A DNA stretch of 64,000 nucleotides. Origin: a phage. The notes under the pieces were generated by a model. That model was not told where the DNA came from and ran no database searches. It was given only the letters and a program-made list of their open reading frames with translations. Of the stretch, positions 267-12,056 are shown in pieces. The translations under genes and the position numbers were made by a program. How positions within the stretch are numbered: the first letter of the stretch is position 1; each line of letters begins with the position of its first letter. Where the stretch lies: the NCBI GenBank assembly GCA_020773975.1, contig GCA_020773975.1_3638.1; one strand, given 5' to 3'.

Positions 267-874
267 TGTATCCAATTCCTTGTTTCTATAATACAATTAT
301 TAACAAGATAGCGGCACAATCCATAACTTTACAACCTATAGGTATTGCATTAAAAGGTAGTTCTAAAAAGCTGGCGTATGCGGTTTCCCCCGAAGGGGCT
401 GATATATATGATATAACTTTTGAAGCTAATACGCCGGATTCGGTCTCTGTTAATAAAGATGGGGAAATATCCTTTATTTCAGAAGGTTACTTCAGTATAT
501 TAATGACAGCAAAGACAGTTGGAGATATAACTTTATCCGATGTTATAATTGGAAATGTAGAAGAGTTGAGATTGGACGTTGACCCTATAGGAAATAGACC
601 AATCGGGGACAGGTTCTGGTTTGTCTATAGAGGCGATCCTTCTTTTGATCCTGGCAACCCATCCCCTAATATGGTTGGTTTTGATGTATTCCCGCCAAAG
701 ATCATGGAAGAAGATGACTTCTTTGTCTATGGGTTTGCAGAAACACCTAACATCATAAGCATGGCTCCTAGCGGGATATTTACATGCATATCCTCTGGTG
801 AGGCACAATGTGGATTAAAAGGTACATACAAAGATGTTTCTGCCACCCACAAAGAAACAGTAACGGTGGTTTAA
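267..874 (+). CDS. Ig-like (Big_2-type) domain protein, function unknown
   Basis: ATG at 267 preceded by TAGGAGG; the ORF-track start at 242 is a GTG inside the upstream hairpin; beta-rich pattern reminiscent of bacterial Ig-like domains. Confidence 0.5.
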
Positions 875-1020
875 TAAAGCTCTTTTATAATTTTGTAGGA
901 CATCACTTATTTTTACAAGTAAATATTTATTACAAATAATCCACACTTTATAGGAGTATGTAATTATCATAAGATCGCCACTGTTGTATAAATCCCTAAT
1001 AAACACCTAGACTTTAATCA

Positions 1021-3525: not shown

Positions 3526-3819
3526 CTATCCTTTATTTATATATCTCTTCCAGTCAGAAACAATGTTAGATGCAAGCTGGTAAGTTCCGTTGGCATGTCC
3601 ATCAGTTTTTGCTGCCGCTTTTACATATGGTAGGGATTGTTCGAGAGCATCCACAATCAAGGGACACATTGCAATAGCCAAAGCTAGATTCCCGTTTTCA
3701 GCGGTACAGATTGGGGAGTAGCTCTCCATTCCGTTTCCGTATTTCTCAAGACTACCTTTAACAATAACTTGGTCTTCACCAAACAAATCCTCATGATGTT
3801 CCCACATTTCTTCGATCAT
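3526..3819 (-). CDS. hypothetical protein
   Basis: ORF-track ORF in co-directional array. Confidence 0.5.
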   Translation of the reverse strand: MIEEMWEHHEDLFGEDQVIVKGSLEKYGNGMESYSPICTAENGNLALAIAMCPLIVDALEQSLPYVKAAAKTDGHANGTYQLASNIVSDWKRYINKG

Positions 3820-4041
3820 CTAGTTGTTCCTCAATTTTGCCATTGCATTATTAAATATTTTTTCGAGTTTCCTGTATTTAATCTTTTGTTTTATGCTTAA
3901 CTTTTTTCTCTCTCCGGCAACCATTGCGCCATAATACTTAAATAAAACAACACGTCTATTGCTTACTTTTAATACTTGGGATTCCCTTTTCCTTGGCAGG
4001 AGAAGGATTTTAGCTTTGCGATTTTTCAACTTTACCTCCAA
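3820..4041 (-). CDS. small basic hypothetical protein
   Basis: 73 aa, Lys/Arg-rich. Confidence 0.4.
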   Translation of the reverse strand: MEVKLKNRKAKILLLPRKRESQVLKVSNRRVVLFKYYGAMVAGERKKLSIKQKIKYRKLEKIFNNAMAKLRNN

Positions 4042-4453
4042 TCATCTTATCCAGTTTTCGCCACATATCCCACACACCACCATTACCTATTGTGTTTTTC
4101 GATGGAGTCACACAGGCGATAAATTCCAGATCAGTGCCCTTATTCATAAGATATTCAGATACCAACCCTGAAGCGATCAGTTTTATATTTTCAAGGTCTT
4201 CTTCAAGCTCCTTAATACGAGCCTGTGCTTTTTCAATTTCTTCCTTATGTCTTTTGTATTCTTGAAAAGCGTGCCAAGATTGTCCTTTATGAACACTTTC
4301 ACAAATGGCCTCTACTTGCTCTTTTGAGAGCACAGTGAGTGGTTGAGATGGGAAAATCATTATTTGTCCACTATCCCAATCGAATCCTGCATGTATAGAT
4401 TGAACATCAACCGAAGGTGTTGCTCCAACAGTACCTGGGGAATGAATAACCAT
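4010..4453 (-). CDS. hypothetical protein (coiled-coil segment)
   Basis: 147 aa; heptad-like charged stretch EEIEKAQARIKELEEDLENIK. Confidence 0.5.
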   Translation of the reverse strand: MVIHSPGTVGATPSVDVQSIHAGFDWDSGQIMIFPSQPLTVLSKEQVEAICESVHKGQSWHAFQEYKRHKEEIEKAQARIKELEEDLENIKLIASGLVSEYLMNKGTDLEFIACVTPSKNTIGNGGVWDMWRKLDKMIGGKVEKSQS

Positions 4454-8609: not shown

Positions 8610-8981
8610 TTAATTAGCCAATTCAGCATCCAACGACATTATATACTCAGGTAGCTTTCGGATGTTCTCATACAGCACAATCTCTCCGTGTGTCAATGGC
8701 CTGATTTCTTTATCCACACCAACATTATTATGGTAATCCCAATCGGCATCAACATGGACGAAGACCAGTGTTCCTCTATTGCCAGCCTTAGCGTCCTTTC
8801 TTACGATAATCTCTCCGTCTATTGAAGGTAGGCATCTTTTGAAGAATTTGTTTAAAAGTTTTTGTTGAATTGCTTCTGCCAAGATCATTTTGTCTTGGCT
8901 ATCTACGATTCTTTTGATTTCAGAGTCGTTTACTTCAACATCAATAAGTTGTGTTGTTGTCTGGGTTCCTTTTACTTTCAT
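8610..8981 (-). CDS. hypothetical protein
   Basis: ORF-track ORF in co-directional array. Confidence 0.5.
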   Translation of the reverse strand: MKVKGTQTTTQLIDVEVNDSEIKRIVDSQDKMILAEAIQQKLLNKFFKRCLPSIDGEIIVRKDAKAGNRGTLVFVHVDADWDYHNNVGVDKEIRPLTHGEIVLYENIRKLPEYIMSLDAELAN

Positions 8982-9026
8982 GCCACCTCTTCTTTTAAAA
9001 AGGTGCTTTTCAGCACCTTACCATTT

Positions 9027-9326
9027 TTAGTGAGAATCTGCCCATGTGTATCCACAAAGATATTCTCCTGTAATTAAAACTGGAAGCCCCATTATCTTAG
9101 ATGCTTTTTCTACACATTTTGTTGCAAGCTCTCCTACTGGGCAATGCAGTATCCTGTATTTCCCATACACATCAGGTTCAACAATAACTCTACCCGCTTT
9201 CACATAATGTCCGTCGAAACGATGACCTTTTTCAAGCATCATATCTACATAGCTTTGTGCCGCCTCTAAGTTAGAATGCTCCGTTATTGATTTAAATCTT
9301 TCCGGTACTTGTACCTGTATCTCATC
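9027..9326 (-). CDS. DNA polymerase, family A (T7 gp5-like), 3' exon carrying motif C
   Basis: Begins ...DEIQVQV (motif C, HDE of Pol A; T7 gp5 has WVHDEIQV as recalled) and ends ...YTWADSH, like the T7 polymerase C-terminus; ORF-track start 9329 includes the ATG whose G is proposed to be the intron 3' terminal G. Confidence 0.65.
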   Translation of the reverse strand, partial: DEIQVQVPERFKSITEHSNLEAAQSYVDMMLEKGHRFDGHYVKAGRVIVEPDVYGKYRILHCPVGELATKCVEKASKIMGLPVLITGEYLCGYTWADSH

Positions 9327-9644
9327 CATCAGTTCAGAGAGTTCGTTACGCTCTCCCGCACCATTACGTGCATAGCCACAAGATTTCTCCTGTGGGTCGG
9401 ACTATCTCATCCTCCTGATATTAAGGAGGCCTCCCGTTTCGACCGCACTTGCTGGCCTACTCTACTCGCTTTCACATTACTAGTGTGCTTTCGATAGTCT
9501 CTGAACGTTCATCCCATAGGGATGCTTCGCTGCGGATTAGCATATTGAACTTTTGCTACTTTTACGTATAAAAGCCAGCTTAGCCTTCCCGTCAATTAGA
9601 GAGGTTTTCGACATGCATTACTGCATGAAGCCACAATGTTATTT
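9327..9644 (-). ncRNA. putative self-splicing group I intron in the DNA polymerase gene (no ORF)
   Basis: 318 nt between codon His (9645-9647) and codon Asp (9324-9326); joining gives ...VIYYH|DEIQV in frame; 5' exon ends in U, insert ends in G; GUGG 11 nt into the insert can pair with exon CCAU giving a U-G wobble at the splice site. Confidence 0.5.
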
Positions 9645-12056
9645 ATGGTAGTAGATAACCCTCCTGACACCTTGGTCGTACCATCCCCATTTCACCAATT
9701 CCCAATGGAACAGGACTCCCATGAGGTCAAACAATGAAGCACCACCGTTTTGTTGGTAAGCATTCAGCAGAGAATGTTTAGAACGAGTCCAAATTTTACG
9801 CCCGTCCATGCCTGGAATATAGCGTCTCCCATTTGCCTCCCAGAATTTTTCCAACCACTCCCTACGCATTTTCAACCCGAAGTTACTATCCCAGAATGCA
9901 TCTATTACAGCCTGTGCTCTATTAAGGGGGATACCCAGCATTGCGGCTATCTTAGGAGCTTGTGCTCCATACATAATTCCATACGTAACCCCCTTTCCTC
10001 CAGAGCGTGTTACCTCCTTTCCTGCTGCTATTGTGTATGCTCTTGCGTTTCGTTCATGGGCATCCTCTTCCATCATGATACGTAAATACTCACCACCATC
10101 AAACTCAAAAGCCCCTGCCGCTGCAATCATACCTTCTAAGTTAGATCCATCACAACCCATCAGGTAGTAGCCTTCAGGGACTGTCCAAAGACCCCGCATT
10201 TCTTTTCCCAACAAAACCTTCGGATCAGGCTTGGGCATGTTTGCGCAAACAGTATGCTTGCACCTGCCCGTGTTAGTGATTCCAGAAAAACGTGCTGGAA
10301 GTTTTCCGTCAATGTCTAAACGAGGGTGATTTAATAACCCTGTATCCGTCTTATCCTCATCCATTGGGTCTAAAACAGATCGCCTGTTACGAAGTGATAG
10401 CCACTTAACAATCTGTTTTGCCATATGCACATCAATTTTCTCCAAATTTGGACACAGATGCCCAAAATTATCTTTTAATTGAGGAGATGTCGGTAACTGG
10501 CGTGCTTTACGCCGAAATTTCTTAAATATCTCTGAATAACCCCTTTCAGATGCATGGCGATGGTCAAACTTACGCTCTGAAATGTTGAATTTCTCATCTG
10601 AATCATTAAGGTAGTCAAGAATAAGAGATTTATACTCAGACTCTGCCAACTCTTCTATGTACTTCTTAACTAGTACATCAATTTCAGAATCTTCACGAGT
10701 CTTTTTAAATTGATCCTTAGTAACATCTTTTACGCGCCACAGTGTAGGTTTCCAACCAGCATCTTTGATCAAATATTTTTTAATATCATCCTGATTAGAG
10801 ATTTTCATTGGAACCATTAAATCTGGCATTTTTCTGTTTCGAAGGTCTTCTTTAGCCTTCTCTAGAAGATCCGGCGGTAAAGGTTCGAGTGTGTTCTCTT
10901 TGGTTCGCTGGGAACGAATGAAATCACCGTATAAAGCCGGATCTTCAATGCCATTCTGGATGCAATATCTCTCCCCTGCTGCACTTACATCCCCATTGCT
11001 CTTAAAAGCTGTTTTTGGTGGAGCTTTAAACTCCAGAGCTTCCCTGTTAACAGGATAGCCAAGTTTATATTCCAACCAATTCCACCCATGATGAGATATA
11101 TTACCCGCTGTGTCAAAAGGGTTAGCTGGGAATTTTGGTTGTTGAGATTTCGTCATCTCTTTTTTTGGAAGAAGTGGTTCTACCTCTTCTTCAATTTCTC
11201 GCATCATCTTATCTATGCGATCTCTTAATTTTTCTGCCTCCTCCCGATTAAAGTATACGCCTTGTATTTCTTGCTCTATCATCAAATAGTCTGTGAGCAT
11301 TCTCCTACGTAATGCATTTTTCCAATTAATCTGGTGCATCCCGTGAGGTTTATCAGTGTACATAAACTGCTTGTCATCAGGCCATCGCGTACCATTTGAC
11401 TCATCAATAAGAGCTTTCCACACAAGTTCGTTAATGATAACGTCTTCCCACACACGGTTTACATATTCCCACAATGGCTGATTACGCCAATCATCAATCT
11501 GCACTTTCTTGTTTGCTACACGATAACCCCATGCCAATAAGCCGTGTGGCCCAACCCTGTCACGTTTTCCTGTTACAGGGTTCAATACAGAATCTGGGCA
11601 GCCATTAGGCAATGGGCGATCTGGGTAAAGAACACGACTCATTGAAAGAGTGTCGTAAAGATTTACCTGTTTATTACCTATCGTCCCCATACATTTTAGG
11701 TCTTTGAACATGTCATATTCAATCCCAGAAAGTTTTTTCCACAGACGTAAATCATAGCCGAACAGGTTATGTATTGCTATCCCTCTTGGCTCGGTCTGCA
11801 ACCAAGAGTAAAAATCATCATAAGAAAGGATACGTAAATTAACACCTTCTTTGCTGCGTGCAAAATTAACTGCACTCTGGTATTCCTTGTGAGCAGGATC
11901 GAGAAACAACACCCAGTTATTTACAGCATATTCTTTAAAAAGTGTGCAGTGATATTTAGTTGCCTCTTCTAATAATCCGTCAGCTTCGTTATCTCCGACA
12001 AAAAGCCCTTTCATACTCCTCCTATTCAAGATGGGCTTGACTGTATCGTCGCCCAT
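9645..12056 (-). CDS. DNA polymerase, family A (T7 gp5-like), 5' exon
   Basis: N-terminal 3'-5' exo motif LFVGDNEADGLLEEATKYHC (T7 MIVSDIEANALLESVTKFHC as recalled); motif A GCDGSNLEGM; motif B RSGGKGVTYGIMYGA; ORF stops 2 codons after the expected motif-C His. Confidence 0.85.

Follow-up and report, generated by a model that had tools for sequence, protein, structure and literature searches.

The window analysed here is a 64,000-nucleotide stretch of phage DNA that is 96% identical to the Avunavirus phages 18-1-2, TH18 and Av-05 (Vequintavirinae, rV5-like), and its minus strand carries a DNA polymerase gene of family A (T7 gp5-like) that is interrupted at 9644..9327. Does this locus hold two genes, or one gene whose parts are rejoined at the RNA level, and, in the second case, what kind of element divides it? 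The first-pass annotation had proposed a putative group I intron, and this reading is borne out by the Rfam score of the insert, by the exactness of the junction, by a covarying P1–P10 fold, by a site shared with other phages and by a homologue, in phage CB7, that is known to be spliced. We consider it very nearly certain that 9644..9327(-) is a 318-nt group I intron, IA2-like and endonuclease-free, within motif C of the polymerase of an Avunavirus (rV5-like) coliphage.

The interrupted polymerase gene

The ORF upstream of the insert (9639..12056, minus strand; 805 aa) ends in ...GVRRVIYYHK*, that is, in the His, one Lys codon and a stop, the polymerase frame closing two codons past VIYYH, as had been noticed at the outset. 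The downstream ORF (9027..9329, minus strand) encodes 100 aa, beginning MDEIQVQVP... and ending ...YTWADSH, which also agrees with the earlier description. On the basis of the ORF list and of a match to Pfam DNA_pol_A, exon 1 is assigned to 9645..12056(-), with 804 codons up to ...VIYYH; exon 2, at 9027..9326(-), has 99 codons (DEIQV...YTWADSH) plus the stop, and supplies both the C-terminal His and the catalytic Asp-Glu pair of motif C. Deletion of exactly 318 nt (9327..9644) joins ...TAC TAC CAT to GAT GAG ATA in frame and gives a product of 903 aa reading ...VIYYH|DEIQV..., which confirms the restoration of the frame claimed before. The predicted junction of the spliced exons is ...TACTACCAT|GATGAGATA... 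at the RNA level, and the junction-spanning peptide predicted for the spliced polymerase is VIYYHDEIQVQVPER. Exon 1 shows 97% DNA identity to Avunavirus phages; translation of the polymerase may start at a Met 14 codons downstream, at 12014, a position that matches the start annotated in relatives.

Alignment to an intron-less polymerase had been suggested as a check on the junction. In Salmonella phage KE23 (Seunavirus) the polymerase gene is uninterrupted and encodes 918 aa, and the spliced product is collinear with this protein, with 80% identity and no gap at the junction (RRVIYYHDEIQVQVP versus RRLIYYHDEYQLQVP). The best PDB match of the spliced product is T7 gp5 (E 2.8e-13), where the alignment is again gapless, ...wvHDEIQV standing against ...yyHDEIQV, and the same structure search gives motif C as His784-Asp785-Glu786 in Taq coordinates. 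The T7 and Taq alignments thus put HDE in motif C, so that the gene is split between the His and the catalytic Asp-Glu. Taken separately, exon 2 (9027..9326) is 42% identical to KE23, with a 13-residue deletion, and the final 62 residues of exon 1 show 85% identity; the much greater divergence of exon 2 between genera might be due to an insertion of variable sequence past motif C, or else to recombination at the edge of the intron.

The AUG that opens the 100-aa ORF (9329) consists of the last three bases of the intron. Since relatives carry GUG or UUG in its place, the 'M' of this ORF is best seen as an artefact of the ORF caller and not as a real start codon. Moreover, when the sequence upstream of AUG 9329 was searched for a Shine-Dalgarno sequence at a usable distance, none was found. 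Separate translation of exon 2 is therefore unlikely.

Structure and covariation of the intron

The search with Rfam covariance models that had also been proposed identifies the insert as a group I catalytic intron. RF00028 (Intron_gpI), whose gathering score is 50, matches at 9654..9379(-) over the full model (1-253) with 81.2 bits and an E of 4.6e-19. A permissive Rfam scan of the 64-kb window returned no other RNA family at E<0.1, and ARAGORN found nothing else there. The P1–P9.2 structure was drawn by hand on the window sequence; intron position i corresponds to window position 9645-i, and all helices given below are on the minus strand. The stretch said earlier to resemble the conserved core, CAGAGACUA at intron nt 142-150, is aligned with the Rfam consensus UUCAaAGACUA.

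P1 (9631..9648) is formed by exon CCAU (9648..9645) and intron AA (9644..9643) paired with the guide UUGUGG (9636..9631), around the loop AUAACA. The 5' exon ends in U (9645) and the insert in G (9327), and GUGG at intron nt 11-14 pairs with the exon CCAU so that the last exon base enters the U(9645)·G(9634) wobble at the splice site, all of which had been anticipated. P1 is also present in the MFE fold, and 6/6 of its pairs are invariant in 10 homologues. At the other end, the omega-G of the 3' splice site (9327) is fixed by the protein junction and is invariant in all 10 homologues. A predicted P10 (9323..9326) would pair exon-2 GAUG with intron CAUU (9638..9635) over 4 bp, adjoining the P1 wobble pair, and 3–4 bp appear to be retained in the homologues. 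We also considered G315 of the intron as an alternative 3' splice site: its use keeps the frame and adds a Met (YYH-M-DE), a residue that is missing from the homologues, and P10 is lost, so this candidate was rejected.

P2 (9612..9627) is the hairpin CAUGCA-GUAA-UGCAUG, with a GNRA loop. The 5' strand of P3 (CCUCUC, 9599..9604) pairs with its 3' strand (GGGAGG, 9430..9435) at 9435..9430. The P4/P5/P5a domain (9531..9594) is placed by the Rfam alignment and the pair counts, with P4 (9594..9588 with 9536..9531) around P5 and a variable P5a (9584..9540); the P5a extension, a hairpin with a UACG loop, is drawn from the window sequence and the MFE fold. P6 (GCG/CGU) and the 15-nt P6a hairpin CAUCCC-UAU-GGGAUG occupy 9505..9530. 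The 5' strand of P7 (GACUA, 9495..9499) follows J6/7 (UCAGA) and pairs with the 3' strand UAGUC (9404..9400; feature 9400..9404), making a pseudoknot with P3. The stretch that separates P7 from the second strand of P3 (9441..9494) contains P7.1 (9494..9466), taken from the MFE fold, an invariant GUA linker (9460..9458) and P7.2 (9457..9441), which shows covariation. P8 (9411..9429) is CCUCCU-UAAUAUC-AGGAGG, and the segment 9336..9395 contains P9 (9395..9376, GAAA loop), P9.1 (9371..9358) and P9.2 (9356..9336). By the criterion quoted in PMC3428280, introns of subgroup IA2 have at this place, before the 3' strand of P3, the helices P7.1 and P7.2 joined by G-U-A. The window's intron has this arrangement, an assignment judged by the peripheral helices; the compact Vibrio copies lack P7.1.

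The fold was evaluated on alignment A1, made with MAFFT from 10 homologous introns (the window's and nine others, described below) after removal of their ORFs. P6a and P7.1 were excluded from the pair count and P5 was counted as a 2-bp core; MAFFT partly misaligned the columns of the 4-bp P5 and of P6a for the GEC, CR9, V5 and Vibrio copies. Standard pairs fill 99.2% of the 635 pair cells, versus 33–42% after a shift of the partners by 1–3 columns, and compensatory double changes are found in 26 of the 64 pairs, versus 1–5 after such a shift; none of 500 shuffles reached the observed values of pairing or covariation. P3, P4, P6, P7 and P8 are paired at 97–100%, with compensatory changes in P3 (two pairs; 100% paired), P4, P7 and P8. 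Such changes are especially many in P2 (6/6 pairs), P8 (4/6 pairs), P9 and P9.2 (9/18 pairs over P9, P9.1 and P9.2). Covariation thus supports the P3–P8 core and its P3/P7 pseudoknot, the support for P7 being thin: this helix of 5–7 bp is 100% paired and for the most part does not vary, a single pair showing a compensatory change (U-A to C-G) and another a change on one side. The P5a and P7.1 extensions have no covariation support, owing to their poor alignability.

Run on A1 without an input structure, RNAalifold recovered P1, P2, P3, P4, P5, P7.2, P8, P9, P9.1 and P9.2, and did not recover P6 or the pseudoknotted P7. When the intron sequence is folded by itself, its MFE structure surpasses those of shuffled sequences by no more than a modest margin (z -2.9) and mispairs the P7 region, as is to be expected of a pseudoknotted ribozyme. 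RNAalifold also pairs GUCCG (9398..9402, intron nt 243–247) with UG|GAU (9324..9328), across the 3' splice site. This 5-bp pairing is invariant, with zero covariation, and competes with P7, whose 3' strand it overlaps; it may be spurious, or else represent an alternative contact or one like P9.0.

Relatives of the intron and its mobility

Blastn matches the window's intron to 178 phage records, the nearest being 86% identical; a search of IMG/VR for the exact window variant, made with a 30-mer from P8/J8/7, gave no exact match. Introns were extracted from nine of the 178 matching records, and in 9/9 the interruption falls exactly between the motif C His and the Asp-Glu (DNA TACCAT|GATGA), the junction residues being YYH|DE in Vequintavirinae and SYH|DE in two Vibrio phages. 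There is no HNH ORF in P6a of the introns of 18-1-2 (317 nt), JEP1 (328 nt), V5 (E. coli O157 typing phage 5; 276 nt, at 601..876 of the extracted record L007, with 64.7 bits on Rfam), Vibrio K412 (254 nt) and Vibrio qdvp001 (253 nt). The introns of Av-05 (843 nt), FV3 (842 nt), GEC_vB_MG (771 nt) and CR9 (772 nt) carry in P6a an HNH gene of ~500 nt, with Pfam HNH_3 matches. With CB7 added to the nine, ten same-site copies all score on Rfam, and 6/10 reach the gathering cut-off. The first-pass annotation had held that a conserved spacer lacking group I structure would speak against an intron; the opposite is seen.

In Pectobacterium phage vB_PatM_CB7 (Certrevirus, Vequintavirinae), RT-PCR and Sanger sequencing on infected cells demonstrated that the CB7_51/CB7_49 intron is spliced (PMC7344957). 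This intron and the window's belong to a common family and occupy the identical site (...IIYYH|DEYQL), the CB7 flanks reading ttaccat|AAGTAACATTGTGGC... and ...AAACTTTTG|gatgaa (intron 3' end CTTTTG), and it scores 46.6 bits on Rfam although it is split by its ORF. It differs from the window's intron in having an HNH gene (CB7_50) in P6a and no long P7.1, and the cores are ~70% identical, a value taken from the near-identical CR9 copy. By analogy, the window's copy is expected to be catalytically active and spliced as well.

The intron core at 9456..9545 (nt 100-189, P4'–P6–P7) also gives short blastn matches, at 79–88% identity, elsewhere in other phages, among them the region of the terminase large-subunit gene of rV5-like phages and unannotated spots in Salmonella/Escherichia phages of ~85–89 kb; to judge from their sequence, these are presumably other group I introns with the common conserved core. 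About 20 unannotated MG0656xx 'Campylobacter phage' records (135–143 kb) match the rV5-like polymerase and intron at ~80%, and their host label looks doubtful; a few shorter 'Campylobacter phage' records (59–71 kb) give short core matches only. A tblastn search with the HNH protein of the Av-05 intron matched 1146 records. T7-like carriers were sought through this protein, and the two Autographiviridae matches examined, Koot and JG068, proved to be free-standing HNH genes, with no polymerase introns.

We take Asp882 and Glu883 of Pol I to be the catalytic residues, so that site 881 would be the motif C His, that is, the site of the window's intron. The introns of the T7-like phages phiI and W31 are reported at polymerase site 881 (E. 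coli numbering), as IA2 introns with an HNH gene in P6a (PMC3428280). By this description, they are like the window's intron in interrupting a T7 gp5-type family A polymerase at the equivalent site and in being IA2 with P7.1/P7.2, and their HNH gene in P6a recalls the ORF-bearing relatives of the window's intron. They (AY769989, AY769990) differ in that the window copy is endonuclease-free and resides in a ~130-kb rV5-like myovirus, not in a podovirus. The same account places other phage introns of family A polymerases at site 674, in the fingers subdomain (PMC3428280). These resemble the window's presumed self-splicing IA-type intron in ribozyme type and in their conserved catalytic region, and are often accompanied by HNH nicking endonucleases; in contrast, they lie in the fingers rather than in motif C, and no detectable sequence relationship to the window's intron was seen. 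The td, nrdB and nrdD (sunY) introns of T4 are IA2 introns, in ORF-less and ORF-bearing versions, in essential nucleotide- and DNA-metabolism genes of a virulent coliphage. In this textbook comparison the likeness to the window's intron lies in the ribozyme class and subgroup, and the difference in the genes that they interrupt and in the families of their endonucleases (GIY-YIG, HNH).

Is the window's intron mobile? There is no ORF in its 318 nt, and without an endonuclease gene it would not home autonomously. The HNH_3-type ORFs of Av-05, FV3, GEC_vB_MG, CR9 and CB7 nonetheless indicate that the family is mobile, even if the window copy is not so on its own. Most likely, the window copy is an HNH-bearing mobile form after loss of the endonuclease gene, or else a core-only relative. 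At the one conserved site the intron is present in some members of the subfamily and absent from others: within one genus, GEC_vB_MG has it and KE23 is without it. The relationships among the introns also disagree with those of the host gene. Between the window and 18-1-2, the intron is 86% identical and the exons 96–98%; between the window and Vibrio K412, the intron is 78% identical and the flanking exon protein 14–22%. These contrasts between intron and exon identity, together with the patchy presence within a genus, are what marks horizontal spread by homing. Where the window's intron departs from that of 18-1-2, the changes cluster in P5a, P8 and P9.2, with pairing kept. A fuller history can be offered tentatively, as a possibility that we would not expect to hold in all its parts: one mobile intron family may have spread horizontally into the motif C His|Asp site of unrelated phages (Vequintavirinae, Vibrio K412/qdvp001 and perhaps phiI/W31), the window copy may persist as site protection against the HNH endonucleases of co-infecting relatives, and P5a, P8 and P9.2 may have been reshuffled by recombination between variants.

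The polymerase genes of 18-1-2 and Av-05, the window's nearest relatives, hold a second group I intron, of 735 nt and with an HNH ORF, in motif B (...GKGITYG|IMYGAQ; 3623..4357 in the extracted records L001/L002). This intron scores 47.5 bits on Rfam (E 1e-9), and CB7 carries one at the same site. The window is without it, being contiguous at 9978|9979(-), and its motif B codons are GGA ATT versus GGT|ATC in the intron-bearing alleles, a synonymous difference that makes the last 'exon 1' base an A and not the U required by P1. Directly after the polymerase stop, Av-05 has in addition a free-standing HNH gene (~620 nt, L002 5805..6443), which is absent from 18-1-2 and from the window (8981..9029). 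In all, four HNH-related insertions are found at the Av-05 polymerase locus, and the window retains only the ORF-less intron core.

Proposed splicing, alternative readings and annotation

According to the mechanism that we propose, the ribozyme would fold into P1–P9.2 within the pre-mRNA, and its internal guide UUGUGG would pair with exon CCAU and intron AA. An external guanosine would then attack after the wobble-paired U, the 3' splice site would be aligned by the terminal G together with P10, in which exon-2 GAUG pairs with CAUU of the intron, and ligation of the exons would produce an mRNA for a single polymerase of 903 aa (...YYHDEIQV...). On unspliced RNA, translation would terminate two codons into the intron (AAA UAA), giving a polymerase without the catalytic Asp-Glu.

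Could the gene instead be truly split, with the spacer retained and the 805-aa and 100-aa polypeptides assembling, as for NrdA of Aeromonas phage Aeh1, which is split by mobE? The ORF caller does give two ORFs, the second with an ATG start, relatives have separate CDSs named 'DNA polymerase' in their GenBank records, and the CB7 paper mentions the existence of split genes that do not splice (PMC7344957). However, the spacer has the high score and the covariation of a group I ribozyme, the His and the catalytic Asp-Glu would fall on different chains, in relatives the 'ATG' is replaced by GUG or UUG, no ribosome-binding site lies close to it, and the homologous CB7 intron is spliced (PMC7344957). 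We therefore regard a split polymerase as very improbable. An unlikely reading of another kind is that of a decayed group I intron, self-splicing inefficiently and either in need of a protein cofactor from host or phage or limiting the expression of the polymerase. In its favour are the absence of the endonuclease gene, which belongs to the late part of a homing element's life cycle, and a difference of 14% from the nearest relative in the intron versus 2–4% in the exons. Yet these differences are located in the peripheral helices P5a, P8 and P9.2 and are compensatory, every strand of the core agrees with the Rfam consensus at high posterior probability, and the polymerase is presumably essential, its exons being 96–98% identical to those of the closest relatives.

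Practically no weight is given to a chance resemblance, to an assembly artefact (a foreign insertion or a chimera) or to another kind of element (an intein or a group II intron). An E of 4.6e-19 and the recurrence of the insertion in many independently sequenced genomes, the 178 matching phage records, speak against the former two; as to the latter, only the group I model scores at E<0.1 in Rfam, and an intein is ruled out by the in-frame stops directly past the 5' splice site.

The consequences are in large part ones of annotation. The rV5 genome paper describes a DNA polymerase of 775 aa and mentions introns only for the terminase gene (PMC3606486). Since V5-type phages carry the 276-nt ORF-less copy of the intron, the published 775-aa polymerase of rV5 comprises exon 1 alone. 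Several records name exon 2 a 'hypothetical protein', and that of 18-1-2 gives it no annotation; we found no published description of this intron in Avunavirus or Vequintavirus. The window's intron is an ordinary member of a known family, common in related phages, at a known type of site and usually unannotated in databases; its value is mainly for annotation, and it holds nothing unexpected for the field. In the window phage, the polymerase is to be described as one protein of 903 aa made from a presumably spliced mRNA, not as a protein of 805 aa plus a 'hypothetical' one of 100 aa. Many rV5-like genomes call for the same correction, several GenBank records either splitting the gene or omitting exon 2. 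The locus also follows a wider rule, by which homing introns come to lie in those catalytic codons of essential phage genes that are conserved most strongly, and its relatives form a natural series for the intron life cycle: empty site, ORF-less intron, HNH intron, motif B intron and free-standing HNH gene.
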